Source: Felis catus (Eukaryota). Taken from it: a stretch of 64,000 nucleotides of DNA. The stretch covers positions 79,856,001-79,920,000 of the forward strand of contig NC_058368.1 in the NCBI RefSeq assembly GCF_018350175.1, read 5' to 3'. Shown here piece after piece: positions 7,211 through 63,568 of this stretch. The position numbers and the translations under genes are program-made. Numbering within the stretch: the first letter of the stretch is position 1; the number at the start of each line of letters is the position of its first letter. The notes beneath the pieces are model-generated. The model ran no database searches, had not been told where the DNA came from, and saw nothing but the letters and a program-made list of their open reading frames with translations.

Positions 7211-8371
7211 TAACCATCTGTTTGTTTCTTCATGTGCTTTCCAGCCACCATCAGGTGGGGCTGCCAGCTGAAAACGCAGGCTCCTCTCCAAATCAGCTCA
7301 AGAGCTCCTGGAGAAGGTACACTCTAAGGTCTCATCCATCACTTAAATTCTATGGTTTTATGGTTTGATCGGCAATTATTCCTTTCTAACTTATAGAGTA
7401 GTGATTCTCAAAATGTGTCCACAGCCCACCTATGGGCAAAGCCAGGAAGTAATCATTCCCTTAGTGGCTCTTGGCAAATGATGCTCACGTAGGTAGATAC
7501 TCACTCTATATATGACTGAGGACCAATCACTGGTAATCTAGTGAGAGGAAACGAAGAGGGACTTCAGTGGAAATTTGTGAATTAAAGTTCCCACCTTTCC
7601 AGAGTGTCCTGAAGATGCTACTTCAGCATTTAACTAAAAAATCTGGCTCGAAAGTCCTGTTTGATGTGTTCTAGAATTCAGACAAATGTCAGGACTCTGC
7701 CACAGGTTGAACAGAGGCTGTTATGAGCAGTTCCTTTGTTCTAATCCTGTTTTCACATGATCACATTTCACTTACTTGTAAATGTGTTCATGGGGAACTT
7801 TGTAAACTCGACAGCGGTTAGTGATTCAAAGTTGCATTAGCAATATTTTTTAGTGTATAGTTTTCCAATGTGGACATGAAAAATTCATTTCCTTCTAGCT
7901 CAGACAAGCTTCATCCACTGTTTCTTGCTCCAATAGTTGAATCATTCATCACCCCCCTCCCACAAAAACAAAAAAAAACAATGCAACACTCCGTTATTAC
8001 CACCAAAATAGTTATCTTCTGGGAAATGGAGATCTGTGATGGGTGAACTGCATCAAGCTTTTTGACAACCACTGTCCCAGGTCTGTGCCCAACTTTCGCA
8101 CCTCCAGGTTTATGTCCAAGTTTAGTGAAGACATTCCTGTGTTCTTGTTCTGCATGGTTCTGTGAAAATGAGGGTGAAGATACAGAACACACAAGAGTGG
8201 CTTTACCACTCTGGAACTGAGTGACCCCCTTCCAAATTCACATCACACACCTGTGTGTAAGGCGTGCCCAAGTGCCCGGCAAGGCTAAGCGATGCCCTGT
8301 GGTGGCGCTGGCTCACTGTAAGGCTGTGTTCTCCTGCTTTGCCCAAAGCAGCAAGCCAGGTCTGTGGGCTC

Positions 8372-8880
8372 TGTGGTGGACTGAATAGCGACCCTGTAAA
8401 GATGTCCACGTGCTAGTCCCAGGAAACCCTGAATATGTTCCCTTACCTATCAAAGGACTATGAAGATTTAAAAATGGAATTAAGGTGGCTAATTAATGGA
8501 CCTCAAAATAGAGACGTTATCCTGGATTATCTGCATGAACCCAATATAGTCATAAGGGTCCTTAAAAGTGAGAGTGGGAGACAGACGAAGAGAGTCAGAG
8601 GAAGATGTGACCACAGAGGCAGCCTGGAGGGATGTAAAGAAAGCCTGACCAGCCATCGCTGACATGGACGATGGAGGAAGGGGTCACAGCCAAGGAACGT
8701 GACAGTCTCTGGACACTGAAACAGGCAAGGACACCGATTCTCCACTGCAGCCTCCAGAAGGAAGCAGCCCAACACAAAACTTGATTTCCGCTCAGGCTGC
8801 AAACCTACAGAGCTGTAAGATAATAAATGTGTGTTTGTGCAAGCCGCTGGCTCTGCGGTGATTTGTTACAGCAGCAATAG
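8372..8880 (+). mobile_element. MLT1 (D/E-like) solo LTR
   Basis: tgtggtggactgaatag...aaagatgtccacgt...atcctggattatct...ataaatgtgtg...tttgttacagcagcaatag. Confidence 0.8.
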
Positions 8881-9224
8881 CCTTGCCCCAGGCATATGTT
8901 TTCAGAGATCCCAGGGAGACAAAGGGCTGGCAAGATAGGGAGGAAAACACAGGGAAAGATGAATCTTATTTTACCAGGATTACCTCCAATATTTAAATAA
9001 AGGAAATTCACAGCACATTAATTGCTTTTCATTCTGTTTTCTCCCTGGCCAGCAAAGGTCTTGTGTGTGTTCACGCATTCACTCAACTAGCAACCATTCG
9101 TTCAGAGTGTTTTACATGCACTAAGCCAGAGTCGGGACATTTTTAAAAACAAATTTTTTAAAGTACTCACCCTTCTTCAAGAAGTTGATAACAGAGGAGA
9201 AAGAGGAAAACGCGACACACACAC

Positions 9225-9495
9225 GGTGAGCGGGTGGCTGGTGAGCATGCGGCGGGACGTGACTGGTGAGCGTTGTAGCGGGACGGGATTGGTGAATATG
9301 CACCAGGGCGGGATTGGTGAGCGTGCGGCGGGACGTGATTGGTGAATATGAGCGGGACGGGATTGGTGAATATGCAGCAGGGCGGGATTGGTGAGCGTGC
9401 GGCGGGACGTGATTGGTGAATATGAGCAGGGCGGGATTGGTGAGCGTGTAGCAGGATGAGATTGGTGAACAGGTGGTGAGACGGGATTGGTGCCC
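9225..9495. repeat. 24-26 bp minisatellite with an ATTGG (CCAAT) core and 74-bp higher-order structure
   Basis: ATTGG at 9288, 9313, 9338, 9362, 9387, 9412, 9436, 9461, 9486; degenerate units at 9237 and 9262. Confidence 0.95.
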
Positions 9496-10089
9496 TGAGG
9501 CAGAGGACAAAAGGTGCAGGGGGCATCCAGCCGAGAGAGCCCAGGCTTGGTGGAGAAGGGGCGCTTCAGACCCAAGATGACGTGTGTGTTTGCAGATCAG
9601 CCAGAGTCCCCAGGTGGACGGAGAGGGCGACAAGAAGAAAGGTGCAGAGTAATGAAAGGCCAAGCCGGGTGCCTCAGGGCACAGCAGTGTCTGGAATGTT
9701 TGGGGCTCTTGTCGGAAAGTTCCTATGAAGTGTCCACCGTGTTTTCCGATTGAAGAAAGGAAAAAAGTTAAAGAGGGAAAATGGTTTTTGTGTGCCAGCA
9801 CAAGTAAAAGGCCATTGTTATGAGAACTACCCAAATTTTTCAAAACAGTTTGCAGAGGGGACGACCCCACCCAGGGCCATCGCACAAGGAGTCCGAGGCT
9901 CCGACAACATCACATTGGCACCGCCAGCCTCCACCCAACACGTGTTCAGGAGGGAATTCGCTTAAACAGAACAGGAAGAAAACATCACAGCTGGGCAGTG
10001 CCTGGTGAGCAGAGGCAGAAGGAGAAGGGCGCCCTTGCCACGTCACCCCTACCACGGGCAGGAGGGGAGAGGGAGCGCACCAGGACCGG

Positions 10090-39086: not shown

Positions 39087-39119
<33 letters not shown>

Positions 39120-41322: not shown

Positions 41323-41404
41323 AGTGGCCGGTGCAGTAACTTTTAATGTTTCTGTGGCAATACTAGCAACAAATTAATAAAAGCTTAATTTTTATACAAA
41401 TAGT

Positions 41405-41410
41405 TTTATT
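41405..41410 (-). terminator. Likely main distal polyadenylation signal AATAAA
   Basis: tttatt on +; UGUA motifs upstream and U/GU-rich sequence downstream in mRNA sense. Confidence 0.75.
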
Positions 41411-41993
41411 ACAAATTTGAATTTGTAAGAAATACACATGTCAAGAAATTACATAAAAGGCCTTAGTAGTCTTAAAACCGTGTTGGAGACTTTTGGTGCA
41501 AGGTCATTGCCTTGCATTGACAGTGCAAGGTCATTGCCAGTGGTCAATCCTGCTCTCCTGTGATCCGTCCGCTCCCTGCTGACGTCTGCACGCAGCTCGC
41601 CGGAGCGAGCAAGCCACCCGGAGGCGATTACACGGGGGGAATACTGATACTAGGGTTCAACTGAGCTGTTTTGCACACCAGGCCGCAGAACGACGAATAC
41701 GAAGTAAACGAAGGCCTTTTACGGTTTTGCTGGTTCTGAAGTCAGGTCATTCGGTTGTGATTAGTGTTTAAAACCCTGAAGACATTTAATACAGAATACA
41801 AACAATAAGCTCAGAGTACATGTTTCACTGGAGCAGACGCCGCGCTCGTGGACCTGGGTTTGGCTTTGGCGATACACGCGTTTTGGTTTGGAGGTGAACA
41901 ACGAAAACGGGACGTGTCACATTCAACACCCGGGTGTTTAAAAATCTATGTGAAAGGACAACACAGTCTTTTCAAGGAAGAAACTACGTAAGC

Positions 41994-42475
41994 TTTATTT
42001 TAACAGTGGAAATGAAACAAACCTTTGACCTAATCGCTGACATCTATATAAATTACTAAAATAATATATATATTTAATTTCCGCCTACTTTTGGACCATC
42101 TTTATTCCACAGGAAATTTGTGATTTCTGCACAAGCAGCTGCATAGTACCACACAGAGCAGAAAGACCTACATTTACGTCTGGGGGTTGGAAGATTCGGT
42201 GGCTGAGCCATTCCATCAGCAGGCCCGGAACACTGTTCTCGCGGGACCCACTCGTGTACGGGCCCAGGGACCTGCGCTTGGAAACAGCTTGACGGTGACG
42301 TAAACAAACATCCCATCCGGGGGAGGGAATGCACCTGTCCCAACACAAGAGTGGACACAGGCGTTCAGACACAATGGAAGGCCCCGCGCACCTGCTAGCA
42401 CCCTTTGGTTTTCTGATGGAGTTCGTACTTCACGCATCAGTGCATTGGCTTCAAGAACAGACTTACACTTTTATT
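41994..42475 (-). terminator. Three candidate proximal poly(A) signals (AATAAA at 42470-42475, 42101-42106, 41994-41999)
   Basis: Exact hexamers seen; usage unknown. Confidence 0.45.
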
Positions 42476-42690
42476 TCATCAAAAGTGCCATTTGGTGCGT
42501 CACTATGACAGCTTATCATGCTCTTTGTTTCTCCTTCAGCGAGTAGAGGCCACCGAAGCGGGGTGTGCTAGTTAGGCAAATTCCTATAAGGCACTTTACG
42601 GCTTTCATACTGGACAGTGAGGTACACAGGATATATTTCTAGGGTTCGTTGCTGTTAACAAGAGAAGGGGGAGAGGAGGGAGTAGCACCA
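42396..42690 (-). promoter_or_regulatory. miRNA seed-site cluster in the proximal 3'UTR
   Basis: miR-29 8mer TGGTGCTA 42683-42690 and 7mer-A1 42396-42402; let-7 7mer-A1 42618-42624; miR-124 8mer GTGCCTTA 42587-42594; miR-21 7mer-m8 42510-42516; miR-148/152 8mer TGCACTGA 42437-42444. Confidence 0.75.
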
Positions 42691-42720
42691 TGTTGTACGT
42701 TAGCTGAGGGCCGGGTTTCA

Positions 42721-42802
42721 TTATGTTCTTCTCATACAGACTTGGCAACGGCTGACGTGTGTGCGCAGCTCCCCCGCCTTCAAGGTGGACGGCGTGGGCT
42801 TC
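42721..42802 (-). CDS. COL4A1: COL4A1 terminal exon (52 equivalent), coding part
   Basis: 82 nt, tgtag|GAAGCCC...; [29 protein letters not shown], followed immediately by an in-frame TGA; contains NC1 Lys211. Confidence 0.98.
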
Positions 42803-44346
42803 CTACAAGGCAACCCAGAAACCAGCTGTCAGCGCCGCTGCTCCACGAGGCAGGCGAGCCCCTCAGCAGCCCCCACCTTTCCTGGAGCCCCCCCCCCCCG
42901 AGGGGCCGGATGAAGGGGGTGGGCCCAGCCCATGACAAGCAGCGACCACTGCTCGCCCTGACCTAGTGGGCACCGCGCTGGGTGTCACCCGCCCTCACAG
43001 TGCGGGGAGGGACAGGGGCCGTGCACGACATCACGTCACCCCCATGCGTGGCCGTGAGGCTGGTGGTGGCCCAATCGCACGCACAGGTGAGGGCACAGCC
43101 ACAGCCATCCCGTGCCTGTTGGGCTCTAAAGTCTGAGCCACTCCCAGGGCACCGCACAGCCTCCTTGGACTGTGACTTTCCCACTCCAACCTTTCTCCTT
43201 GACCAGACCACTCGCTCCTCCCGGGGAGGAAGGTGCTCTTCTCTGTGACCCTTCACACACAGAGGGAGAGCTCATTAAACATTGGTTGTAGGGTGTGATG
43301 AGCAATGAATCTGGAACAATTAACCAGACCTCGAAATACTTTCATAAGCTTTTGCCAGAGTTCTATGCAGGTGGTCGGACTGGAGGCCAGAGGGGAAGAC
43401 AGTTAGTGTCCCAAATGCTCTTTGATCCTAGGAATTCTGTCTTAAGTTGACCGTTAGTGGGGTGAAGTCAGAACCGAAGTTGGCACTAACCAAATTCTAC
43501 TAAAAAGGTAGCCACAGAAAACAAGTAACTTGTCCTCAAATTAAGGCTGCTTCTAAGCAACTTCTATGAAAACCATATTGCCCCTAAACTAATTATTTAA
43601 ATTAATAGGATCTTATCTAATTTTGTTTTAGTTCATCGTACCAGGCTGCTGTTCTATTAACCCTATAATGGAAGCCCGAGAACCTGATACACCTGCCGAG
43701 TGCTCAGTGAGGCAGCTGATGGTTAAGCTTTATCCGGAGAGTTGATGTCAAGCTTCCAAATGCCTGCAGGGTTTCATGTACGCTATGAATTAGGTCCCCG
43801 GTACTTTTTTGGTGCTTAAAGAATTACAAACAGAGAGTGTGTTACTCTGTCTCTTATGATCTAAGCCCAGGAAGAGAGGGGCTCACAACAGAGTTCCAGA
43901 AAATTCTCTCTGAAAAGGTAAAGGCAGAAAGGCTTGTCCCCAGGGGCGAGCGGCACTTATTTCGGGAAGGAACAGTAAGCATTGGGGCTCCATCAGCCTC
44001 GTGTCTGCCCCAGCAGGGGATGGGGCCAGTGCTGCCAAAGGACAGAGGACTCGTCGTGTGCTCCCCTCCATCCCCACCGTGCAGGCCCCACACTGACTTC
44101 AGCAAGGTCAGCAGCCATTTGGGACAGCTGTCATAAAGGTGAAGTGGTGCTAGCAGAAAAGAAAGGTAAGGTCCTCCCTATCAATTTCAGCTGCACTTGT
44201 GCCAAAATTCATGTTTATTTGCATGGGTTTAATAAAGTCTTGCTTCGTCCCTCAGAACTCACTCTGTACATACACTGGAGTCGGCACTACAACTGCTAGA
44301 AGGCAAATACTGCCCTTTCCTCTCTCACCAATGTTAAATGTGCAAT

Positions 44347-44604
44347 ATTTTTATTTTTTGAATTTTTAAAAATGTTTGATTTATTTATTTTGAGAGAGTG
44401 TGTGTGCGTGCAAGCAGGGGAGCAGCAGAGACAGACGGCAGGGGCAGGGGTGGGGGGGAGAGAAAGAGAGAGAGATTGCCAAGCAGGCTCTGAGCTGTCA
44501 GAGCCCTGAGCCCCATGCAAAGCTCGATCCCACGAACTGTGAGACCATGACGTGAGCAGAAATCAAGAGTCAGAAGCTAACTGACTGAGCCACCGAAGTA
44601 CCCC
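44347..44604 (-). mobile_element. CAN-SINE in the last COL4A1 intron
   Basis: TSD caatattttt. Confidence 0.88.
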
Positions 44605-44842
44605 CAATATTTTTAAATGCTCTGTTTAAAGACTCCAGATGCTTTAACTACACTGTAGTGGCGCCACCTACAAAAATGGAAGAACTGAACCCATAACTTG
44701 AGATCTGCCTTTGAAGTCTGACCCGGTTATCTGTCCACACAGAACAGAATCGAATATTCATTACCTCCTGTGGAACACACGTTCCTAATCAGTTTTATAA
44801 CCATCCAGAAGACCAAGACTGAAAGCCCCAAAGGCGGCTGAG

Positions 44843-45240
44843 CAGCAGAGAGGCCCCGCCCCAGCAGAGAGGGCCCCGCCCCAAGAGCAGAGAGGGCCCC
44901 GCCCCAGCAGAACAGAGGGCCCCGCCCCAGCAGAGAGGCCCCGCCCCAACAGAGGCCCTGCCCCAGCAGGGAGGCCCCGCCCCAGCAGAGGCCCTGCCCC
45001 AAAAACAGAGAGGCCCCGCCCCAGCAGACAGGCCCTACCCCAACAGCAGAGAAGGCCCTGCCCCAGCAGAGGTCCGATGCCAGCAGAGAGGCCCCTCCCC
45101 AACACCAGAGAGGGCCCGCCCCAGCAGAGAGGCCCCGCCCCAGCAGAGGCCCCGCCCCAACACCAGAGAGGCCCGCCCCAGCAGAGAGGCCCCTCCCCAA
45201 CACCAGAGAGGGCCCCTTCCCAGCAGAGAGGGCCGCCCAG
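44843..45240. repeat. GC-box minisatellite, about 20 units of 17-23 bp (consensus cagcagagaggccccgcccc)
   Basis: Counted by eye; abuts the exon 51 donor. Confidence 0.95.
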
Positions 45241-45245
45241 ACTTA

Positions 45246-45554
<309 letters not shown>

Positions 45555-47383
45555 CTAACTCGGCATGGCCAGTCCGGCTTCATCAGCACTTAGAGAAATG
45601 CTGTCCTAGTTATTATTTTTGAAACACTTGACACCTCCTCTAACTTGGGACAGAAGAAACAGCCAAAATGTGTAAATGATGTTGGAACCCATACATGCAA
45701 AATCAAGCTTTCTAATCAACATCCTGGAGGATAATTAAAATCCTGAATTTGCTGCATTGGATGCTATGTATCCTTTTATAAGGTAAAGAACAATCACCCA
45801 TTACTTGCCTTTAAAAAGAGAGATCATTTAAAGAAGAAGAAAAAAAAGTAACCACTACTGTAACTTAAAATGCACTTTAGTCTAATGGGTTCAAGTAGGA
45901 TCTACCTGTGCTCAGAAACCAGGGCCATAAGATAAATGACCCCAAATGAGACAAGACATTCCAAAATCCACCATCACTATTATTTCAGACATGAGAATTT
46001 CAGGGCCCTTTGAAGACAAAGCTAATGCCCTCCATTCCCAGATGAGGACTGGATGACGCTAGAACATTCTGGATCTGACAATGGTCCCAGTTTTGAGGCC
46101 AAGCTGAGACAAGAACAGGGGTCTCCAGACTGTGGGGCCAGAGCCCCTCCACCTCCCCACAATGCCCCTTAAGCCTGGGAAGTGATGGAGAACTTGCTCC
46201 CTGGGACACCATTACTTTAGTTTGCTCTTGATTTAGGGAAATTATGGGCAATCATTGTTTCACATCTTTGTAGGACAAAAGGCTTTCCTGAGGCTCTTTA
46301 CTCCTTGGGCCAGGGGCTACTTGTGTCATCACGAGGTTCTGCTGAGTATTTCTTATGATTATACAGGCAAAACATTCAATCTGTCTCATCACTGCTGGTG
46401 TCTTGACTTCTCTACACTGTAGTTCTAACTTTTTGGCTTTCCCAATCAAGTAGTTACCATGCAGTATTTAGAACCATCAAAGCAACTAACTTTCTGTGTG
46501 GCTGCAAATTCTCTGGTCCTGTTGAAGAGTCTACCTGAAGCATCATCAACCCAGGAAATCTCACAACCAAACGTGAATACAGACACAAGTGCTTTAAAAT
46601 TGCTTTTCTGGCACCTTCTGCACTTGGGATCACTGCAGCAGAAGAAAACAGTTATGAAGCCACTTTCCCAGTCAATACATAATAGGCTAGAGATCATCTG
46701 GGGGTCAAAACGTCCAGGCGGCCATACCTGAGACTGAGGAGGGGCGGGGCTTAGTGTGAGCCAGAAGGTTTCCGTGCAGGGCCCTTACTGTGGCTTACCC
46801 GGTACAACCTGACTTGACCGGTTCAGAGCCTTCATATATGCAATCACTTCTTTAAACTGAGGCAATAAAATAAAGTAACCAGCCACCATGGGATCACAAG
46901 CAGGTGCCATATTTCCTGTGTTAACTGGTATTTCAGGGGTGGGCACATCGGACACCTGGTGTCTGGGACAGCTGAGTGGCAGGAGAGTGTCCTCACGCTC
47001 CCAGACACTGGCCAGAGCCCCTGCTGCCTCTGCCCGATGCACACCACTGCTTCAGGCTTGCATGAGCTGCCTGAATGGGCACCCGTCTCCTCTCCTCCTG
47101 GGGAGACGCTCTGACTCCCGGAAACCTTCTCCTGGTGTCCCTGCCACCTAGTTCTGGAGCAGCCCCTCGGGAGGCAGGAGGTAGGCTCCGGCCGGGTGTG
47201 GGAGCAGCTGCCATCCACAGTGGAGCAGGCCAGGCCCCTGGGGATGCTTTGGACTGGGCGGCCCAGCAAGGGAAGAGAGGCCTGCCCGGCATGAGCCAGC
47301 CAACTGAGGGTGGGAGCATGGAGGCGGTGGTAGTGTTAGCGGGAGGCTCTTCAGGGGTGCAGGGAGTTTCCCCAAATGCTCAC

Positions 47384-47498
47384 CATCACGAAGGAATAGC
47401 CAATCCAGAGGGAGGACCAGCCGCTGGGACACTGCGGAATCTGGATGGTCTGGCTGTGCACGGCCATCACCATGGCTGGAGCCTCGCACACCGCACAC
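47384..47498 (-). CDS. COL4A1: COL4A1 exon 50 equivalent, NC1
   Basis: 115 nt, ttccag|GTGTG...ATG|gtgagc; [38 protein letters not shown] (translated by hand). Confidence 0.97.
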
Positions 47499-50400
47499 CT
47501 GGAAGGTACAGAGCAGGGACCCTGAGCACGGACAGGGACAGGGACAGCAGGACAGGGACAGCACAGGATGAAACCTGTTTGTTGTCTTCTCCTGTGCTGT
47601 CACACCTCCTCTCCACTCCCGCTTTCTGACTCAACCACATGCTTACAACACGGCTGACACGCCCACAGCTGACTCTCACTGATTTGATAAGCCCACCTCA
47701 GTACTAGAATAATAAATCCCCAAGACACCCAACACTTGCTGTTTAACCATCTGCTTTGGTGGAGGGGCCGAGGGACCGCTGACTTTCATTGTCTCCTTTG
47801 CGCATTCCAGTGTTTTCCAAACTTTCAACAATGAGCGTGGACTTTAGCAAACATAATTAACACTTGAAAGAGTTGGTGAAATGCAAGTGCTACAGCTTCC
47901 AGAACTCAGCACTTTGTTTTCAGCTAAGAATCATCTTCGATCTAAGAAATACATGTAGTGACTTAGAGGAACTAACAAATAATGCATCGGAGGCTGGATG
48001 TCCACGTGAGCCTGCCTCGGACGTACTCCAGACTCGATGCCAACAGACCAGTGGCGAGACCCTGTCTGTTCCAGGCGGGGATGGACACCGGGACACTGCA
48101 GTGGGAGTGACCCCCAAAGAACCGTCTCTAGGACAGGAGCTTCCCGAGCTGGGATGCCAGACACTCGGCCACTGGGACCGTACCCAGGAACAAATGAAAA
48201 CAACGCACAATCTTCTGACTCAGACCCGCTCAACTCAGGGAACCCTTCGATGGCAGGACACCGTTTTGTACAAGAAAAAAGAATTAAGCACTAGCAGTAA
48301 AATAATTACATTCAAGTCACAAAATGAACAGAGTGTTAGCAATGCTGACGAATGACTACAAATGGTGTTAATAATTACACCTAGTTATGCCGGAACATTT
48401 GCATGAAAATGGATGAGAAGTGGGCAGAGGCCTAAATTAGTCATTCGATTTTCCGTGGACGTGTGTGCGTGCGTGCGCACAGCTTTCTATTTTATTCACG
48501 CAAATGCAGATGAATTAAAAGCCTCGGTTAAACAACAGTTACTGAAATTGGCCTGTACATCTGCTACCATCTGTCTGCCTGACACGGAAAGCAGAAATAG
48601 AGCGTGGCAGACGGACGGCATTTGATGTCAGGCTCTCTCTGGGCTCAGGGTTTGGGAGGGGGGCTCGTCGAGAAGGTCATCCGGACACCGCCCCATCAGA
48701 TGGATAAGGGAACAGGGTCACAGACTGGAAGAGCTGGACAGCCCCTTGAAATTCAGACGGTTGAATCCCCCGGGTTATTCCGGCAAAGGCTGAGGCCACA
48801 GAGAGCGTGTCAGAGCCAGAACTGGGGCGCAGCAGCCCTGCTCTCCCAACAGTGGCCCTTCCGCCAGAACAATTAAACAATCAGTAGCGTGCGATAACTC
48901 AAGTCGACACGAAGCCAGAAATGTCTGCCCTGTTCTCAGGATGAAGGCAGAAAAGTTGCCAGCTTTTCTGCTTAAACAGAAGGATTCCGTGTTATTAACT
49001 CTTTCAAAAGGTTAAGCTTTAGGACCTCCCCAGAATAACCCGAAAGGCCCAAGACTTCACACAACCACGGGGTGAAAGTAACCATGGAAACTTGTGGGCT
49101 CAGAGACCAGAATGGAAGCGCTGTTCCAAAGGGAACGTGAGACAGCAGGCTGGGGGGGAGGGGGGGCAGGTTTCAGGATCCACGGGCTCCAGGACATGAC
49201 TGATAAAGTCCCTGCATGCTGAGCCTCTGGGGGTCAGGTAACAGAGATGCCAGGAGCTGAAATGTACAGGGCTGGGGCACCAAAGCATGCTGTCAGGGCG
49301 GGGGGGTCTTTCTGAAAGTGAGGGGGCCACAGGGGAAAACAAATCTGAGACCCAGGCTCATTTGGGAACATCACAAACGCATGCCACAGCCCCTTCCCTC
49401 AAGCAAATGGAAGTCAAAGGTCAGTTTTATCAAGGAGGTAAAATAGCAAACAAACATGAATAATCGTTTTCTACCTGTCGTCCAAGGGAAGCTGAACAAA
49501 AATACAAAGGTGGTTAGTTTTCCTTCCGGTACAACCCACATGGTCCTGAGCGTGGAAAGCCTCAACAGCGAAAGTCACAGGTACTCGCTGACATGTGTAA
49601 ACGACTGTCTGTTTTGAAAGGTGCCGCCCAGAAGTGTGAAGAACCTTTTTTCCATTTTAAGACCCATAAAGTAAGTTTCTTACAGCTCAAAAAGAAACAA
49701 CCCCCCCCCAAAAAAACCAAACCCAAAAAAGCTATCAGGAGATAGTTTAATGTAAGTCAATCTACAGTTTTTGTATTTTAATATTAGGGCACCTCCCAGC
49801 CCTTCCATCCTGGGGTCCCGTGTGGTACAGGTCCCTGAATAAGACTGATCTGCCAGGACCGCAGAGCCAGAGACAGGTACCAGAACCCGAAATCCTCCCC
49901 CAAATCCCCACGGCCTGGGGCTCTGAGCACTGGTTCCAGCGCTTACTTCCTGCTCCCTCTTCCCACTGACCACAGGACCCTGCCTTACCCTTCTTCATAG
50001 TCAAAAGCTGCCTGGTTCTTTAAAGGGAGTGTAGAAAGGCTCAAGTTAGTCCCCACTCTCACCTTCCTGAAGCAAACTTGTCCTGCCTTGTTATTCTGTT
50101 CATCCTTTATTACCTTAGTGTGTTAACAAGTAAAACTATAGAACGGCTTCTTGGTCACATGAATTCATACCTTTGTCACTTTTCTATTACTTCTGAGTAC
50201 AGCTAAGGAATCAGCTTTTAACTAGAAGGAATGAGACAAAAATAGGACCTCCATGCACTTCTCAGTCATACTAATTCCAATTTCCCGTATTAGTTCCTAT
50301 CAGGCAGACTCTGGGGGACTTGAAAACATGCTCCAGACATTAATTAGTGTGGAAAGCACTTCATTTGGGAAGCTGCTTGGTCAAACATGTGAATTGTCAG

Positions 50401-50624
50401 TGGGAATTTACCCTAAGGAAACAAAAGTTAGTGTGGGGGGGGGTACAAAAAATCTCGATAGGTATACATTTTTATGTATACAACAAATCTGTATAATCTT
50501 TGTGTATAAAGCACAGATATACAGAATGTCTGCGGTATTAGTTTCATAGAGACACTTCACACCCATATTTGAGCTCCTGCATTAAATACCACTGAACTCG
50601 GCACTTAGAAATGGTTAAGATGAT

Positions 50625-50807
50625 GGGGCGCCTGGGTGGCTCAGTCGATTAAGCACCAGACTTTGGCTTAGGTCATGATTTCAGGGTTTGTGGGTTCGAG
50701 CCCCGTGTTGGGCTCTGTGCTGACAGCTCAGAGCCTGGAGCCTGCTTCAGATTCTGTGTCTCCCTCTCTCTCAAAAATAAATAAACATTAAAAAATTTTT
50801 TTTAAAA
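50625..50807 (+). mobile_element. CAN-SINE within an old L1 fragment
   Basis: Perfect 18-bp TSD agaaatggttaagatgat 50607-50624/50808-50825. Confidence 0.94.
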
Positions 50808-51117
50808 AGAAATGGTTAAGATGATTGATTTTATGTCTGTTTTACTACAATTAAAATAACAACAAAATTTTTAAATTTCAAAGCGGTGGGCGATTCAGAA
50901 GAAAAAAATATTAAAAGGCTCCTCGGGGAGATAATTATTTAAGAAAACAAAGTTGAGAATGCTGCTCTAAGGCCTGCTGGGGACTCCAGAGATGTTGCTT
51001 CATGGGGGAAAGGGCGACCAGACCACCCCAGTGAGTCACACAGAATAGGAATTCTGCCCCGAAGCTGGGCAGTGCCTCTTGAAGGCATCACACTGTAATT
51101 CTGAAAGAGGATAGCTT

Positions 51118-51320
51118 GGGACACCTGGGCAGGGGTCAGTCAGTTAAGCGTCTGACTCTTGATTTGGGCTCAGGTCATAGTCTCACAGTTCATGAGTTCA
51201 ATCCCTGCATCAGGCTCTGTGCTCATAGCACAGAGAGACTCTCTCTCTGCTTAAGAGACTCTCCCCATCCCTCTCTCTGCCTCCGCCCGTTCTCTAAACA
51301 AATAAACTTAAAAAAAAAGA
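51118..51320 (+). mobile_element. CAN-SINE
   Basis: Diverged SINEC body. Confidence 0.85.
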
Positions 51321-51516
51321 GAGAGAGAATAACTAACTTTTATACCAAATGATTTTATGTCTGATCTCTATTACAAAACTCTGATATCATAAACAATAAG
51401 CTGGCAACAGGTCAAAAGCTTTGGGGAAAAAAAACGAAGCAACAACCTCTGCCTAGACTACAAGCGGTTTTTCTTCTTCGATTATATACATCTGCTCCTA
51501 CAAGTGCCCAACTCAC

Positions 51517-51694
51517 CTGCTAATGAACGGTCTGATATTGTCACCGGCGATGGGCGCCATAGACATGGGCATGGGCTCAGGGGTGGACAGCCAGTAGGAG
51601 TAGTCATTTCGGGAGGCGAAGTTGCACACGTTGTTGATGTTACAGAACAGGAAGGGCATCGTGCTGAACTTGCGCAGGCAGCTCCCAGCCGTGC
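51517..51694 (-). CDS. COL4A1: COL4A1 exon 49 equivalent, NC1
   Basis: 178 nt; [60 protein letters not shown]; contains NC1 Met93 (sulfilimine crosslink residue, counted from SVDHG). Confidence 0.98.
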
Positions 51695-51982
51695 CTACAG
51701 CCACAGGGAGACACAGGTTCAAGTCCCGGCTCTGTAATCAGTCTGCCTCCTCACAACACAACCATTAAGGTGGAAATAAAACTGCTTTCAATTACAGGCA
51801 GAAAGGAGGCAAATACACCACACAGGCAAGTATGGTTGTAAATGAGCATTAACTTAAATTTAAAGTGATTCAAGGCAGAAGAAACCCTATAAAGAATTAT
51901 GTAGGATATTTTGAGTAAGGGAAACACACCAGTTTATCAGTAGAGAAAAATCTTTTATAAAACTGAACCCCAAAGTTGCTAC

Positions 51983-52285
51983 GGATTCTGTCTCCCTCTC
52001 TCTCTGCCCTGACCCCACTCACGTTCTCCCTCTCTCAAAACTAAATAAACGTTAAAAAAAATTTTTTTTTAAACGGGTGCCCGGGTGGCTCGGTCGGTTA
52101 AACGTCCGACTTTGGCTCAGGTCATGATCTCACTGCTCATGAATTCAAGCCCCGTGTTGGGCTCTGTGCTGACAGCTCGGAGCCTGGAGCCTACTTCGGA
52201 TTCTGTGTCTCCCTCTCTCTCTGCTCCTGCCCTGCTCACACACTCTCTCTCAAAAATTAATAACCACTAAAAATTTTTTTAAAAA
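51983..52285 (+). mobile_element. 5'-truncated SINE (51983-52073) with a full SINE (52075-52285) in its tail
   Basis: Inner aaaaatttttttaaa duplication; outer aaactgaa flanks. Confidence 0.85.
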
Positions 52286-52917
52286 AACTGAATTCCAAGG
52301 GAAATTTAACATGTGGCTCCTGGTACAGCGGACAGTAACCCTGGACAATGTCTTCAATGACTATTTTGCCAAAAATGTAGATTCTCCTTACAGGCGGCTT
52401 GTTCTTTCCAACCTCCATAAAGGTTAACGTGCGTGACACTGCACTAACTTGGTGAAGGACGTCCGGTGGGGACAAGAGAAATGACAGCCAACGGACAGCT
52501 GTCCCATGGAGACTCACCGGGGGTGGGGCTTGGAGCCTGCAGAGAGACTCAGGATAGGGGCGCACGCTCGGGTTTTAGCCAGAGCACCTGTAAAGCTGCC
52601 CTATTTTAAGAAGACCGACACTAGCTGTGAAGCATGTATTCCGGAAATCTTGACCTACTTGATAGTTTGAAGACCAGATCAAAAGTTTTATCAATTTAAA
52701 AGCTTTCAGAGACTCAGCCTTGACATTTCCCTGTGCTAATGAGGCAGCTGTTGAGCTGGTGGTTGGTCGTGTGAGGGGGGAGGGAAGCGGAACCAGGCCC
52801 TCTTCTTGCTAACGACGTCTCTGTGGCGCCCTGACGTGCGGGGCTGGGGACAGCTCTGCCGGCCTCGGCACGCCACGAGTCTGTGTCGGATGAATGCACA
52901 CGTCCCCGCGGTCTCAC

Positions 52918-53130
52918 CCAAGTCCTGGCCGTGCGCCCGCTCGTTGCCTTGCACGTAGAGCAGGGAGTACCCGTGGTAAAGAATTTTGGTCCCAGGAGGA
53001 CACTGCGGGTCGTCCGTCGTCTGACTGTGCCGGGTCACCAGGAAGCCATGATCAACAGATGGGGTGCCTGGGGGACCCATGGATCCTGGCAACCCGTCGG
53101 GGCCTGGCGGGCCTGGAAACCCTCTTGGAC
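52918..53130 (-). CDS. COL4A1: COL4A1 exon 48 equivalent, helix/NC1 junction
   Basis: 213 nt; [71 protein letters not shown]; [13 protein letters not shown] is the alpha1(IV) NC1 start. Confidence 0.98.
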
Positions 53131-53893
53131 CTGGAAGACAGAGAGGAGTGAGCTTCCCCGGGTGCAGACAGGTGCCCTGGGATAACCCGCCTCCACGCTG
53201 CCCCCCTTTCTTTCCCTTTGCACGGACCCCCCACGATGCTTGAGAAACACGGTGCTCGGTGCCAAGCAGACGCTCAGAAAATGGAGTCCAATATAAACAC
53301 AATATGTGAAAAGGAATATATGAGGGAATGTGTCATTCAGACAACATTTGGGGGCTCCTCCAGGGAGGAAGGACCACAGAATTACTAGAAAAAAAAAAAA
53401 ACTCCTTTTAAAAGGTGGCTTCCTGCCATGGCAGCCCAGCACCGCGCAAGGACACAGGGTAGTGAGGGTGCGTCCTTCCCCATCCCCTCGGTAGCTACAC
53501 TGTCTGCAACGCTGCTGGCCGGCCTCCTGCTGGGCTGGGCACACCCCCCCCCCGAACCCCCCCCCCTTCCAGTGGAGGCCTCAGCCTTTACCATCTCAGT
53601 CAACATGGGACAGCAGAGTGTCTGCTTCCTTGGGCAGCACACCGACTGCATTTCATGCCGGATGGTGGCCTCTCGGCCACCACCGGCATCGTCATCCACC
53701 CCTCTTGTCCACTGCTGATACACAATTTCTGTGGCTGCAGCCTGCCCCCCACCCCCACCACAGGAAGCCCCAGGCCGTCACTGCTGGCCATCTTCTAACA
53801 ACATCTGGAAATCACTGGCTGAGATCAACATCTGTCTCTCCACACGGAAAAAATGACAACTTTACCTCTTCTAGATGAGCTTATTTGCCCTTA

Positions 53894-53900
<7 letters not shown>

Positions 53901-53942
<42 letters not shown>
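53901..53942. repeat. (CA)n microsatellite, (UG)n in pre-mRNA, intron 47
   Basis: Pure run. Confidence 0.95.
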
Positions 53943-53944
<2 letters not shown>

Positions 53945-54089
53945 CTTCCTCAGAAATCTTGCAGGCAATGTTTTCAATTCCATTTTGCAGGCGTCTGCAC
54001 ACCTGACTTCCAGCGTGTGCCCCAGAGATGCGGGCAGAGGGCAGCTGGCGGGGTGTGGGGGGGCTGGCAGGGTGCCGCAGCAAACCTAC

Positions 54090-54188
54090 CAGGGGGGCCA
54101 AAGGGTCCCGTCTCTCCTTTCTGGCCAGGAGCACCGTCAAAACCCGGAACACCTGGAGGTCCAGGCAAGCCCACGGATCCTGTCACAC
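54090..54188 (-). CDS. COL4A1: COL4A1 exon 47 equivalent
   Basis: 99 nt, cacag|GTGTG...CCTG|gtaggt; GVTGSVGLPGPPGVPGFDGAPGQKGETGPFGPP. Confidence 0.96.
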
Positions 54189-55142
54189 CTGTGGGAAAGT
54201 GAAAGGAGCTGGTGACAAAGGCCTGGAGCACAGGCGGGTGCCACTTTGTCCTCCCTTCTGAAATGTCTCCGTAGCCTAAGGCCGGCAGCAGCAGTGACAC
54301 TGTTCTCCCAGACAGCCTGGAGCCCCTCCTGTGAAGTCTTGTTGGCACCGGCCGCATCCAAACTGGCGTTCGCAGGGCGCAGACCCCCCCCCGTCTAACC
54401 CAGACCGCGCGCCGCGCCCCCCCCCCCCCCCCGCCACCTGGCTGCTCACTGCTACCTTGTGGCACCTGGCTTTGGGAAAGGCAGTGATGTGGCAGGGAGG
54501 GAGGGCTGTGACCCAGTTTTGTGTTCTCAATCATCTTCCCCAGGCCGTGTTTCCGCACCCCAAGTAATTCTTACGTGACAGACAGACCCGTGGACAGGTC
54601 TTTGATTCCATGTGGGCCCTTTCTTCCCAGGAAGTTTAAAGTGAAATTTTCACGGATGCCTCCTCCTAAGTATAGAGTCTTCCTTCCCCTCTACCGTCCA
54701 GCCACCCCTCACCAGCAGCTCTTAAGACAGGGAGGGCTCAGCCCAACTAAGCAGCAAGTGCCAGGTTGGGTGTCTGGGGACCCCAAGCACGAGCACAGGC
54801 CACTGTCAAGGCCCATTCTCATGGTTCCAGATCAATGCCTCCAGCCACCTCTTGTCTTCTAGCTGAACAAGATAGTCTCTGTGCTGCGGCCCATGTCTTC
54901 CCCAAGTGAGCACAGGTCCCTGGATGTTCCTCTGGCTTCTCCTATATTTTGTTCTGGCTTTTGAGTTCCCTTCAGAAACTTCATTAGGTTTTGATATCCA
55001 TTAAAGGAAATCAAGAAAGTCCTATTCAAATATACACCTGTACGGCCGTCACCCAGAGACCCTGGCTTGGGACACATTGGTGAGGAGCAGACCCTGCCCT
55101 GTTTCCTTCTGACCCCACACCTCCCCTTTGCTATTTTCTTAC

Positions 55143-55271
55143 CTTGCTGTCCTTTGGGGCCTGGTGGTCCCGGAAGCCCCTTCAGACCTGGGGGACCCTC
55201 TGGACCAGGGAGTCCTGGCTCTCCTTTGATGATGTCGTAGGGCCCTGGGGGGCCTGGGGGCCCAGGGAGGC
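55143..55271 (-). CDS. COL4A1: COL4A1 exon 46 equivalent
   Basis: 129 nt, cacag|GCCTC...CAAG|gtaaga; [43 protein letters not shown], including the PYDIIK interruption. Confidence 0.97.
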
Positions 55272-55527
55272 CTGTGGGAATCAGGGGGGCCACCGGTCAG
55301 TTCCACTGTCAACATTCGCGGGAGCAGATCCCAGCATGAAACGCAATCCAAACACGTTTCTCAGAAGTCGCTCAGTATCAAAAACACATGTAATAGGTCT
55401 TCACGAGACGTACACGTACCTACACCTTGCTACTGTTCAACATAAAGTCCCGAATCCTTGGGACTGACCGATGTTGGGGTCATTACTACAAACTGGGAGC
55501 TGGGTCCCGGAGCCCCTGACAACTGCG

Positions 55528-55544
55528 GGCCAGCAGGTGGGGCT
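55528..55544 (+). promoter_or_regulatory. Possible CTCF site
   Basis: GGCCAGCAGGTGGGGCT is one mismatch from the CCASYAGRKGGCRS core; motif match only. Confidence 0.3.
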
Positions 55545-55832
55545 CCATGCCTCCCAGGGATCCCTCCCCGACCCGGAGAGCTACAGCCTGTGCAATTAGG
55601 TCTCATCTTATGCTTCTCTGAAATCTGCCTTATGGACATTATAACCAGTCTTCATCCCTCAGTGACGCAAAAACTTCATCCTTCTGCACGACAGCTCCCG
55701 AAAGATAAGCGGCAGCGAAGGAGTGCGGAGGCTCTCAGTCAGCCCCGGCCCTGCTTTCTTCAGCCAGACATCGCCAGTCCTGTCCTGCCTTCCACACACT
55801 GTCCCCATTTCTTTCACTCCCCCATCGTACTT

Positions 55833-56087
55833 TTTAAATTTTTTTTAACATTTATTCATCTTTGAGAGACAGAGAGAGACAGAGCGCGAGTGGGGGAGGG
55901 GCAGAGAGAGAGGGAGACACAGAATCCGAAGCAGGCTCCAGGCTCTGAGCTGTCAGCACAGAACACAACATGGGGCTTGAACCCACAAACTGTGAGATCA
56001 CGACCTGAGCAGAAGTCGGACGCTTAACCGACTGAGCCACACAGGCACCCCTAACCTTTCTTTAGTTTTTTTTAATGTTTATTTATT

Positions 56088-56135
<48 letters not shown>

Positions 56136-56291
56136 TGAGGAGGGGAGAGTCAGAGAGAGAGGGAGACCCAGGCAGGCTCCAGGCTCTGAGCTGTCAGCAC
56201 AGAGCCTGACATGGGGCTCGAACCCACGAACCGTGAGATCATGACCTGAGCCCAAGTTGGACGCCCAACCGACTGAGCCACCCAGGTGCCC
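55833..56291 (-). mobile_element. Two head-to-tail CAN-SINEs (55833-56051 and 56060-56291)
   Basis: Shared outer TSD cccatcgtactt 55821-55832/56293-56304. Confidence 0.92.
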
Positions 56292-56833
56292 ACCCATCGT
56301 ACTTCTTAATGCACTCTGCTGGCTCAGTCTGTCTCTCGAAACATGATTTCAAAAATCATGGAACCCTAGAAACATGGTCAGACCAGCAGAAACTGGAACT
56401 GGATGCCTGTCATACTTAGACCATTTCCTCCCATCTCGGGAGGCGGTCTTGGAGGCCGGGAGTCGCCGCATGCGGGGGGACAGACGGCGCAGAAGCCACA
56501 GAAGACTCTTTCTTGTGCAAAACTCCTTGCTGCCCAGCCCCCTTTCACACAGGCCCCACCTTAACCTGAGGACACCAAGCAGAGCCTGTAGGACTGCGAG
56601 TCTTGAGTCTGTCGACCCTCCCTGGCTGGATTCACCAGTCTGACTTTTAAGATGCGTCGCTAATAAAATGCCGACTAGGGTAGCCTCACACAGCAGTCCT
56701 GACAAGCTACCAAAGAATTCTTAATCAGCTGCTTGCCACTTATACTCAAGCCGCTTCTCATGGGCAAAACCAAACCCTGATCCACGCGTTCACACCGTCG
56801 GCAAGGCCCCACCAGCCCAGCGCGTGCTCCTAC

Positions 56834-56905
56834 CTTTGCTTCCAGGGAAGCCCTGGTCACCCGGATCGCCCTTAGCTCCCTGCAGGCCGGGGAGGCCTTT
56901 CTGAC
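56834..56905 (-). CDS. COL4A1: COL4A1 exon 45 equivalent
   Basis: 72 nt, ttccag|GTCAG...AAAG|gtagga; GQKGLPGLQGAKGDPGDQGFPGSK. Confidence 0.96.
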
Positions 56906-57417
56906 CTGGAAGAAAGAAGAACATTGTCTCTGCCCAGAACCCCCGAATCCCCAACAATATGCAAGCACGGGCGCATGCACGCACGTCCACGTTCACGCAT
57001 ACACACACACGCAGGGAACGTATTTCCAATCAACTGTCAGAGAAGAAAAGAACATTCCTTCCGGTCAGCTATGTAAACTTTTTAATGACACTCTCCCCTC
57101 TAGAACCTGGAAGTCACATTTTTCCCAACCTGCAAACGTTCCCAAACCATAAAATGACCACAAAAAGCAGACAGGCACATGATCCTGCTGGGGTCACAGT
57201 TTGGGTCACCCATGTCCCCAGACAGACCCCAAGACACCTGTAAGCTGGGAACTGGTTTTAGTCACCTGTCGTTCATATGTATCTGATTCGGCAGGAAAAG
57301 AGCGATGCCTGGGAGCCGGGAGGCAGCCAGTACATGCTGGCTTAATACGTTATAAATCAGTGCCCCGAATCCATGAGGTCTGACATACAAATGATGTACT
57401 AATTCTCTGTTCTTAAT

Positions 57418-57591
57418 TTTTTTGAGTTTATTTATTTGAGAGAGAGACACAGGGAGAGAGAGAATCTCAAGCAGGCTCCGCACTGTCAGCCCTGAGCCCA
57501 ATGTGGGGTTCGATCCCACAAACTGTGAGATCACGACCTGAGCCGAGATCCAGAGTCGGACGCTTCACCGACTGAGCCCCCCAGGCGCCCC
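57418..57591 (-). mobile_element. CAN-SINE, intron 44
   Basis: Reverse body; ttcttaat flanks. Confidence 0.9.
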
Positions 57592-57791
57592 TGTAAACTG
57601 ATTCTTAATAAGAAAATCAGAGCGTCTTTACACAGCCATTCATAGGATGATACAAATCAGGCTGCCACACAGACACGGCATTTTTAACTTGAAGAAAACC
57701 CGATCTTGCGTTGTGACCCAGCTGGCCTATCGGTGTGAAAGTGCCAGCGGACAGGTTCTGTCTTCAAGCAGCACCTCCTTTACTGTCTTAC

Positions 57792-57864
57792 CTTGAAATC
57801 CTGGAACTCCCGGAGGTCCTATGTCACCCTTAGAGCCCGTGAGTCCTGGAGAGCCACCGATTCC
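57792..57864 (-). CDS. COL4A1: COL4A1 exon 44 equivalent
   Basis: 73 nt, tctag|GGAATC...CAAG|gtaaga; GIGGSPGLTGSKGDIGPPGVPGFQ (translated by hand). Confidence 0.95.
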
Positions 57865-58321
57865 CTAGACACACACACAGAGCGTCAGCTGGGAGTCGCT
57901 AGGACACCGTAAGTCTCTCAAGTAGCCTGGAAGTCGGGAGGCTGGGGCAGCCCCTCAGTGTTCCCCAAGAGGCTCTGGGAACAAATGGGGCCTATGTGCA
58001 GCCGCAGTAGGAAGCTGGGAACTGGCACGTGTCGCTTCGCTCCCCTGTCCCCTGTCCCCATCTGTCTGAGTGGTGACTTCCCAGAGCAGGTGCAAGGCCC
58101 GCGACCTACCACCCCTCCCCCACAGCACAGGGCCGAGAACAGATCTGGGACTTTCTGAACACTGTCGTGGCAACATGTCAATCTTTCAACACCAAACTAC
58201 CTTCTGGAAACTTTCCTCCAGACACTCAAGCATAACGAAATTTCTTTAGAATTAGTTTAATATCTTATCTGAAAAGTGATTTTAAATGTGGAGAGAAAAA
58301 AACAAATACTAAGGAGGATTA

Positions 58322-58528
58322 TTTTTAAGTTTACTTTTACTTGTTATGAGAGAGAGAGAGCATGCGAGCAGGGCAGGGGCAAAGACAGAGGGACAGAGAG
58401 AAGCCCAAGGAGGCTTGCACTGTCAGTGGGGAGCCCGATGCAGGGCTCGAACTCATGAACTGTGAGATCATGACCTGAGCAGAAACCAAGAGTCAGACCC
58501 TTAACCGACTGAGCCACCCAGGCACCTC
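58322..58528 (-). mobile_element. CAN-SINE, intron 43
   Basis: Reverse body. Confidence 0.9.
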
Positions 58529-58701
58529 TACGTTTCTCTCTAATATAGCAACATTCATGTTTGGAAATGTATTCTCTCATTTTTCTGGCTATTTCAATAC
58601 AACTCCTTCTCTAGCTCCTTTCTCAACATATAGTAAGTTGTACTGTTTCTCACATGTATTTGTGTCTCTGCTTTACCTTGTTTAAAAAGATGTCCTAACA
58701 A

Positions 58702-58891
58702 GGGGCGCCTGGATGGCTCAGTCGGTTGAGCGTCCGACTTTGGCCCAGGTCATGATCTCGCCATCTGTGAGTTCAAGCCCCACGTCAGGCTCTGTGCTGA
58801 CAGCTCAGAGCCTGGAGCCTGCTTCAGATTCTGTGTCTCCCTCTCTCTCTGCCCCTCCCCCTCCCTCTCAAAAATAAAGATTTAAAAAAAA
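58702..58891 (+). mobile_element. CAN-SINE, intron 43
   Basis: TSD tgtcctaac. Confidence 0.93.
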
Positions 58892-59060
58892 GTGTCCTAA
58901 CGAAAACACACACAAATATAAGTATGTATACACACACGCACACACATACACACGCGTCTATACATGTACATGGAAACAGACAGCCAGCCACTGACGGCAC
59001 CAGAACTAGGGAGTGTATTTGTCACTGAGGCTTGCTGTCTTCATCAAGCGTGTAAACAGA

Positions 59061-59280
59061 TTTTTTTTTAATTTTTTACTGTTTATTCAGTTTTGAGAGA
59101 GAGAGAGACAGAGCGTGAGCGGGGTAGGGGCAGAGAGAAAGGGAGACACAGAATCTGAAGCAGGCTCCAGGCTCCGAGCTGTCAGCACAGAGCCCGACGT
59201 GGGGCTCAAGCTCACGGACTGTGAGATCATGACCTGAGCTGAAGTCAGATGCCTAACCAACTGAGCCATCCAGGGGTCCC
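59061..59280 (-). mobile_element. CAN-SINE, intron 43
   Basis: taaacag(g)attttt flanks. Confidence 0.93.
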
Positions 59281-59480
59281 TAAACAGGATTTTTAACCCA
59301 GGCACTGAGCGGTGATCCTGTGTGACATTCCCCTTTCACAGTCCTTGTAAAATTGCACAAGAAAGAACGTGGGAACAGCAGCCTACTATGATGTCAGGAA
59401 AGACAGCTGATGGCCAGCAAGGGGCAGGAGCCCTCTCCAGTCCTGGAGAGGATTTAGGACTGTGACGCCCGTGGACAGGT

Positions 59481-59482
<2 letters not shown>

Positions 59483-59518
<36 letters not shown>
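59483..59518. repeat. (CA)n microsatellite, (UG)n in pre-mRNA, intron 43
   Basis: Pure run starting about 48 nt after the exon 43 donor. Confidence 0.95.
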
Positions 59519-59519
<1 letters not shown>

Positions 59520-59566
59520 GTGCTGTGATCCTGTTCACACACAAGACCGACAAACAGACAACTCAC

Positions 59567-59700
59567 AGGCAGGCCCTGGAATCCTGGATCTCCCTTGGGT
59601 CCTGGAGCACCGGGAGCCCCTGGCCAGCCTGGGTTTCCTTTGTCACCTTTCAGTCCATCAAGCCCGGGGAGCCCCGGAGGCCCCATGGGTCCCGGAAGCC
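59567..59700 (-). CDS. COL4A1: COL4A1 exon 43 equivalent
   Basis: 134 nt, gtcag|GGCTT...CCT|gtgagt; [45 protein letters not shown]. Confidence 0.97.
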
Positions 59701-60257
59701 CTGACAGGAGACACAGAAGTGACAATCTGAGGTGAGAGGGTGATTTTATGGACAAGTGTCTTGGGCTTGGCTGTCATCCCCGCTGCCCAGCTGTCCCCAA
59801 CCAGGGGCAACAATAGTGGATCAGGCCATGTGAGCACAGCAGAAACCCAGCAGGTCCTCAAAGGGACAACCTGCTCAACAGGCAGAAAATGTTGATATGA
59901 ATGCGCTGGCCCAAGCATCCAGTGTCTCACACAGTGCAGGGCACGCCAGAATGACCATGTTCCAAGCCACCACGGGTGACTCTCATGCTCCAGTCTTTTC
60001 CAATAACGTCTAGTCTACCTGTAATCACTTGTCATATCTACCGTGTTCTTTCACAGAAAGGACACAGGCCTCTAGCGGAGGCCAAAACACAAGGGTCCCC
60101 AAATGGCGTAAGCAGTTTCAAGTTATAGGAAATGTTACGAACCTCTAAGTAAAAAAGTTCAATTGAAGGTTTAAGTATTTAAATCTCGTTTACACTCGTG
60201 TGTGTGTTTGTGCCTTCTGGTTCAGTCCCGGCTCTGGCCCCGGTGAGACACCCTTAC

Positions 60258-60443
60258 CTGGCAGGCCAGGCTGACCCTGTGCGCCCCGGTCTCCTTTAGG
60301 TCCCTCCACAGCGTGGCCCGGAGCTCCGGGTAAGCCCGGCTGTCCTTGTGGCCCCGGGGGACCCATGAATCCTTGCTCTCCTTTGGATCCGGGAATTCCT
60401 GGACTCCCGGCTTGTCCCGGGAAACCCACGTCGCCCTTTGAAC
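60258..60443 (-). CDS. COL4A1: COL4A1 exon 42 equivalent
   Basis: 186 nt, tctag|GTTCA...CCAG|gtaagg; [62 protein letters not shown]. Confidence 0.97.
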
Positions 60444-60714
60444 CTAGACAACAAAACCAGTTTGAGATGGTGGGGAAGCACAGGGGAGAAGAGAAAGCCT
60501 GTACGTCGAGGAGGAGGGAGCTGGGCGAGGGGCAGGGGAAAACCAGAGCCGTGACACACGGGACGCCGACCATGGCTGACCCGGGGAAGAGTAAGCTTAG
60601 AGTATGAGAGCCACCTGTCATTCTTCATACTTTGTAAGGAAGTGTTCTGCCGAAAAGCCATTGGAATACAGGCTGAGAGGGGTCTGTGAGCACCTGCACT
60701 GCTAAATTAAGGGC

Positions 60715-61554: not shown

Positions 61555-61605
61555 CTTTCTCTCCTTTGGCCCCTGGGAACCCTGGGAATGCTCTTCCAGG
61601 CAGGC
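61555..61605 (-). CDS. COL4A1: COL4A1 exon 41 equivalent
   Basis: 51 nt, tacag|GCCTG...AAAG|gtaaca; GLPGRAFPGFPGAKGEK. Confidence 0.95.
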
Positions 61606-63478: not shown

Positions 63479-63568
63479 CTAGAGGAAGAAACAAGACAGC
63501 AGAATGCCATCAATTCGAGACTTTGTTGTCTTTGGACCCAAGCTCAGAAGGAGGCCCGGCTCACCTAC

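Follow-up and report, generated by a model that had tools for sequence, protein, structure and literature searches.

A CCAAT-bearing minisatellite downstream of cat COL4A1, probably a neutral single-locus VNTR of the felid lineage

Known CCAAT repeats and the structure of the cat array

The closest described counterpart of the repeat reported here is the human ABO CBF/NF-Y minisatellite, in which a 43-bp unit occurs in one or four copies; like the cat array, it occupies a single locus, carries CCAAT within its unit and differs in unit number between alleles (PMC2988417, PMC7187371). Four of its units are reported to bind NF-Y and to act in epithelial reporters, with a disputed role in vivo (PMC7187371, PMC2988417). 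The ABO element, for which NF-Y binding and reporter activity have been shown, lies ~3.8 kb from its gene, whereas the cat array has a 25-bp unit, ~10 variant units with a trimer, and no gene start nearby. Given the ABO precedent, the concept of an NF-Y minisatellite is not new. The ERV9/LTR12 U3 repeats and the R66 tandem repeat likewise line up CCAAT boxes in tandem; NF-Y can bind these boxes, in many cases where the chromatin is inactive (PMC3730095, PMC12065363). Those repeats are primate, multi-copy, LTR-borne and equipped with GATA sites; the cat array is single-locus, felid and flanked by non-LTR sequence. Assignment to the LTR12 type was rejected, as the array is not inside an LTR, has no dispersed copies in the window or in run X5 and holds no GATA word (neither GATA nor TATC was found in its units).

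A third parallel is the double-CCAAT NF-Y/FOS/Sp1/Sp2 promoter module. ENCODE NF-Y peaks were reported to contain double CCAAT clusters at 24–28 and 35–37 bp with Sp1-type sites between them, and the spacing in the cat array is 24–25 bp (PMC4889920). The original prediction had described CCAAT plus GC boxes as a common TATA-less promoter grammar; CCAAT pairs 24–28 bp apart with intervening GC-rich sites are a genuine in vivo NF-Y module according to that source. The module was defined by ChIP at promoters and usually has two boxes, whereas in the cat one box was multiplied away from any known start site. BORIS-MS2, a regulatory minisatellite whose CCAAT box is described as lying in a separate core promoter (PMC4973313), is a weaker parallel. 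Finally, the array resembles the GC-rich, long-unit VNTRs of chromosome ends: its unit exceeds 15 bp, its GC content is ~61%, its two strands are asymmetric, and its units occur as variants in an order that varies. This class is reported to be 21-fold enriched in human subtelomeres (PMC7608644). By these features the array belongs among the GC-rich minisatellite VNTRs, differing from generic members in that its unit happens to hold CCAAT.

The whole stretch of cat DNA analysed, 64,000 nucleotides, is referred to as the window. The array and its parts are as follows:

9224..9492, + strand: GC-rich 25-bp minisatellite, in which 10 full units (24–26 nt) follow a partial one of 15 nt and are closed by TGGTG
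9239..9289, + strand: the two units at the left end, U1 of 25 nt and U2 of 26 nt, neither with an intact ATTGG at its left border
9288..9435, + strand: duplicated 74-bp A-B-C trimer with 3 differences, its order differing among the animals compared here
9438..9487, + strand: units D and E, right end, with the lowest CpG content among units
9288..9490, − strand: nine CCAAT boxes at unit borders, from motif positions and consensus scoring
9306..9434, + strand: three GGGCGG cores (9306, 9380, 9429), without any longer GC box

Full units in the window follow the order U1, U2, A1, B, C1, A2, B, C2, D, E. With 129 G and 36 C in 271 nt, the + strand is the G-rich one. TRF reported the array at a period of 25 (10.2 copies, score 226) and at a period of 74 (3.1 copies, score 337); periods 25, 49 and 74 span 9239–9492. 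Nine ATTGG words were located at 9288, 9313, 9338, 9362, 9387, 9412, 9436, 9461 and 9486, in exact agreement with the predicted spacing (25, 25, 24, 25, 25, 24, 25, 25), and the two degenerate unit borders were recovered at ~9237 and ~9262; intact CCAAT stands at 9 of the 11 unit borders. The predicted 74-bp trimers (9288–9361 and 9362–9435) differ at three positions, as claimed (9303/9377, 9354/9428, 9357/9431), and the spacer words are present: GGGCGG at the sites listed, GGCGGGA six times and GACGTG three times. Two descriptions held in part. The octamer-like word GAATATGCA occurs at 9294 and 9368, with the true octamer ATGCAAAT absent from the array; a motif count over the whole array likewise gave no match to GGGGCGGGG or CACGTG. 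The boxes called phased are regularly spaced and out of helical phase, 25 bp amounting to 2.38 turns; helical phase is kept only at the level of the 74-bp trimer (7.05 turns).

Elsewhere in the window there are 67 CCAAT/ATTGG pentamers, with no more than three in any 271 nt, and the cluster in the array is therefore not a product of chance. It is a single motif multiplied by tandem copying, not nine independent sites. When 25-mers were drawn at random from the window, 3.2% contained CCAAT and 0.12% both CCAAT and GGGCGG, rates at which a minisatellite-rich genome would be expected to hold some such arrays. Seven GGTGAG words, which resemble a 5' splice site, were also noted on the + strand within the array (9225–9480).

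Variation between animals and the one-copy orthologue

Contigs of four sequencing runs were aligned to 8900–10080 at 80% likeness. Run X15 yielded pieces covering 8974–9333, 9324–9407, 9378–9427 and 9398–9904, without a letter differing from the window. A simulation of the window unit order at k=31 broke at the same places, and the depth of the 50-nt shared piece (50.2) was roughly double that of the loop piece (27.1). The pieces obtained from run X5, of 98, 36 and 62 nt, are not generated by the window order. An order 24 bp longer, A2-B-C1-A2-B-C1-C2, accounts for the first two and for the start, which is clipped, of the third; among 97,650 single orders of two to seven units it is the only one to yield the 98-nt and 36-nt pieces. 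A mixture with a 50-bp shorter allele gives an identical graph, which leaves room for more than one copy number in X5. Two more breaks in X5 (9427 and 9534) are unaccounted for by the fitted order. A third unit order was found in a related contig, P0003. The array is thus a VNTR whose unit number and order vary between animals, in line with the variability that had been anticipated: X15 has the window order, X5 fits another and P0003 a third. Run X17 contributed just one 35-nt piece, which is unrelated.

Relatives of the locus (P0002, P0003, P0004 and P0007) were compared as peptides of spurious open reading frames from public contigs not assigned to species. P0002 and P0004 are identical to the window. 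P0003 is identical to the right flank at 41 of 43 residues and carries two frameshifts, suggesting either a close relative or a divergent allele. The unit order that best explains its array is U1-U2-A2-B-C1-A2-(B or D)-E, extended by a further unit, and 7 of 95 residues then differ; the array is kept, with at least eight possible CCAAT borders, and the counterparts of D and E are apparently less decayed.

The fourth relative, P0007, matches the right flank at 48–50%, continues into one unit-like stretch and then into the left flank; measured from the anchor at 9588 to that at 9186, its sequence falls short of the window by 84 residues (252 nt, ~ten units). The left-hand match outscored 832 of 832 control windows and the flank-only anchor 1466 of 1466; P0007 is likely the orthologue from a more distant mammal. 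Because it is shorter and carries a single unit-like copy, the array would be a lineage-specific expansion of one monomer; of the cat units, U2 shows likeness to this sole copy. No coding of the unit-like stretch permits CCAAT at either border, and the sole possible CCAAT between the anchors falls at residues 97–99. The CCAAT box therefore likely arose together with the expansion, and the predicted de novo origin is borne out by the one-copy state and by the unit borders that cannot encode the box. Another candidate relative, P0008, was rejected as a low-complexity match to an unrelated repeat.

Genomic setting and copy number of the locus

The surroundings of the array are as follows:

41385..64000, − strand: 3' part of COL4A1 with NC1 and collagen exons, stop codon at ~42721 and AATAAA at ~41405; the nearest gene observed
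8370..8880, + strand: old LTR-type element, separate from the array, with one weak relative at 14750–15153
9050..9223, − strand: left flank, which anchors the distant orthologue
9493..9790, − strand: right flank, a single-copy sequence with orthologues in P0003 and P0007

The array lies ~32 kb downstream of the COL4A1 3' end, so that its description as part of a gene desert was an overstatement. A Pfam scan of 372 of the 378 frames of at least 70 aa, which would miss short exons and lncRNAs, gave convincing matches only to collagen and C4 domains (45–64 kb, minus strand) and three further weak matches below their cut-offs. Two NC1 exons have collagen alpha-1(IV) as their best single-chain match. 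No gene start was found near the array among these frames. By human synteny we presume IRS2 to be the next gene, and we take human COL4A1 to lie at 13q34. A 262-codon stop-free minus frame over the array (9124–9909) was rejected as a gene; though called as a protein in public contigs (P0002, P0004), it has no Pfam match and is likely spurious, its homologues being unnamed calls that are frameshifted in relatives.

Many carnivore-type SINEs occur in the window, and its words recur in feline, gut and mammal metagenomes, both in keeping with felid DNA. The LTR-type element, presumably an MLT1, ends ~345 bp from the array; the predicted distance of 350 bp is thus sound. The left flank and the proximal right flank also bear a putative resemblance to the 3' portion of a single old L2 LINE. 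Within-window alignments with other L2 candidates were collinear, with equally high scores from 264 and 206 of 500 shuffles, and Rfam gave no L2-derived match and nothing credible near the array; its sole match in the window at the gathering threshold is tRNA-like, at 18007. Putative likeness to old L2 3' ends, not significant in pairwise tests, was noted at 5650–6000, 9050–9223, 9493–9750 and 32090–32215. Were both flanks one L2 LINE, the array would be a TE-derived tandem repeat; 23% of human minisatellites and satellites are reported to be TE-derived (PMC3389668).

Whether the array instead forms a repeat within ERV LTRs of a dispersed family, or within some other repeat family, can be judged from its copy number and flanks. 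LTR12-type U3 regions do contain tandem CCAAT repeats, and an LTR-type element stands close by. Against this, the flanks are collinear, single-copy sequence in the distant orthologue, which lacks the array. No paralogous contig was found at 80% likeness in X5, a run in which the filter removes some records and the left flank is missing too; no second copy of the array was found within the 64-kb window; and a two-unit pattern scan of viral contigs returned no matches. In metagenomes the same scan met a single 25-bp repeat (2.7 copies) on two occasions, and in prokaryote genomes it gave one match, to a 13-bp repeat. These three matches are short repeats with unrelated flanks, were taken as chance and were rejected as relatives. 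We consider membership in such a family highly improbable. The choice posed by the original prediction, a unique locus or a dispersed family, falls to the unique locus, and the array is not part of an ERV LTR. Among freely accessible papers, supplements aside, we found none describing this cat locus.

The prokaryote match lies in an Ichthyobacteriaceae MAG (L003, 994–1095), where an intergenic 13-bp repeat of 5.5 copies with the same ATTGG core is followed by an 11-bp repeat; it sits between two near-identical hairpins (875–906 and 1442–1473). We know of no NF-Y in bacteria. Other repeats were noted in the window itself. A 19-bp minisatellite of ~20 units at 44843–45238 holds nine full GGGGCGGGGC boxes, with a G4Hunter peak of 2.12; it lies in the last COL4A1 intron, starting ~10 nt or less from the 5' splice site, with the transcribed strand G-rich. 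A 39-bp CpG-rich repeat of 2.5 copies occupies 1598–1696, and a 310-bp purine-rich GGAG-type array 32810–33122. The long A-rich stretch at 33500–39900, presumably decayed L1-like sequence, is broken by a SINE and by a 132-base assembly gap (39542–39673).

Neutral and regulatory readings of the array

Nine of the ten full units were aligned (E omitted). Six of eight CpG columns varied, all by C/T or G/A, as compared with 5 of 17 other columns, a marginal difference between units that are not independent (one-sided Fisher p=0.043). Differences between the octamer-like word and the B unit are also mainly C/T and G/A transitions. The transitions at CpG columns point to a methylated germline history of the array; germline deamination carries no information on somatic methylation. 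The prediction that CpGs are retained is correct as to density, CpG o/e being 1.28 in the array still and 0.46 in the window, itself a high background, and incorrect as to the individual sites, which differ among units by C>T and G>A. ATTGG columns were invariant in 4 of 5 cases and other non-CpG columns in 8 of 12 (p=0.53); this comparison, of little statistical power, gave no sign of selection on CCAAT. Each box was also scored by its match to the 12-letter NF-Y consensus as printed in PMC3507159. Matches were 10/12 at 9338 and 9412 (the B borders), 9/12 at six sites and 7/12 at 9486; among the 67 other pentamers of the window, 14 reached 9/12 and none 10/12.

We favour, as probable, the reading of the array as a neutral single-locus VNTR of the felid lineage, derived likely from one CCAAT-less copy, in which the CCAAT boxes are probably passengers. 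The order of events that we infer is as follows: a point change would have created ATTGG where a stretch of ~25 bp has its border; this stretch would then have been copied to ~10 units, by slippage or by unequal exchange; unit variants would have arisen largely as CpGs were deaminated in a methylated germline; and unequal exchanges at a later stage may have duplicated variant blocks, giving the 74-bp trimer and the differing unit orders. NF-Y may bind the better sites, as it does at many inactive CCAAT repeats, without transcriptional effect. Repeats that carry such motifs are common: the second array of the window has nine full GGGGCGGGGC boxes and the bacterial MAG the same tandem core. Several observations count against neutrality: the 24–25 bp spacing falls within the double-CCAAT peak, the B-border sites score above all 67 window pentamers, CpG o/e remains high, P0003 keeps the array, and the RNA island of X15 peaks on it. 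If neutral, the VNTR would have little import beyond that of a polymorphic cat marker beside COL4A1.

Enhancer activity of the array is a possibility. As an NF-Y/Sp1 enhancer of the ABO-minisatellite type, it would bear NF-Y trimers on adjacent or alternate CCAAT boxes, and its unit number would tune COL4A1/COL4A2 or a neighbour. The nine intact boxes at a spacing favoured in vivo, the two sites at 10/12 and the alleles of differing unit number are all consistent with such a role, for which the four NF-Y-bound, reporter-active ABO units (PMC7187371) and the reported action of VNTR motif dosage as an eQTL (PMC11701250) are precedents. The ABO element is itself controversial in vivo, and at the cat locus ATTGG is not extra conserved, CpGs show a decay pattern and the nearest gene lies 32 kb away by its end, with no gene start observed nearby. 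Promoters are reported to favour in-phase CCAAT pairs at 31 bp, shorter in-phase distances being argued not feasible (PMC4982600). Binding would not settle the matter: NF-Y is reported to bind closed-chromatin CCAAT at ~20%, with most LTR sites inactive and many inactive repeat sites occupied (PMC3730095), so that NF-Y binding alone would be no proof of function. Overall we regard an enhancer of this type as unlikely.

A more specific version, that a felid enhancer was born from neutral DNA when one point change created CCAAT and the unit expanded at the NF-Y-favoured 24–25 bp, with length alleles that would tune COL4A1/COL4A2 or a neighbour, we rate as distinctly unlikely. If active, the locus would be a natural experiment in enhancer birth, with a single copy in an outgroup, expanded arrays in felids and alleles of different length inside one species; it would also make it possible to test directly how output and NF-Y occupancy change with CCAAT number at a sub-optimal helical spacing.

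The array might also act as a cryptic TATA-less promoter of the LTR12 kind, silent when methylated and active in germ cells or upon HDAC/DNMT inhibition to yield a lncRNA. CCAAT boxes stand there together with GC cores, no TATA word occurs within ~1.5 kb on either side, NF-Y binds LTR12 CCAAT arrays, and a CpG-island-like stretch covers the array at 9121–9590; there are 52 such stretches in the window, which lessens the weight of any one. Against this reading, no ordinary cat tissue transcriptome was among the six RNA runs listed with window words, all six being metatranscriptomes, and their share of window words, 0.73 to 0.09, rises with contig total (62–1887 million letters), a pattern expected of DNA carry-over. 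X15, a gut RNA library, has its sole covered island at 8974–9904 with the peak on the array, which would suit a promoter, but the island extends over both flanks, and RNA and DNA are indistinguishable in it. The single-cell run X22 gave no reads in 12.9 million records (1% of the run), too small a share to bear on the question. A promoter of this kind has, in our judgement, a smaller chance still of being correct.

Of the original proposal of a copy-number-tunable de novo promoter or enhancer, the de novo origin and the variability stand; as to activity, CpG deamination, ATTGG that is not extra conserved, three short GC cores and the lack of an octamer give no sign of it. Three long CpG-island-like stretches with 98–129 CpG each were noted elsewhere in the window, at 1421–2830, 12541–14240 and 30121–31610, none with a protein family match; they appear to be better candidates than the array for regulatory elements or lncRNA starts.
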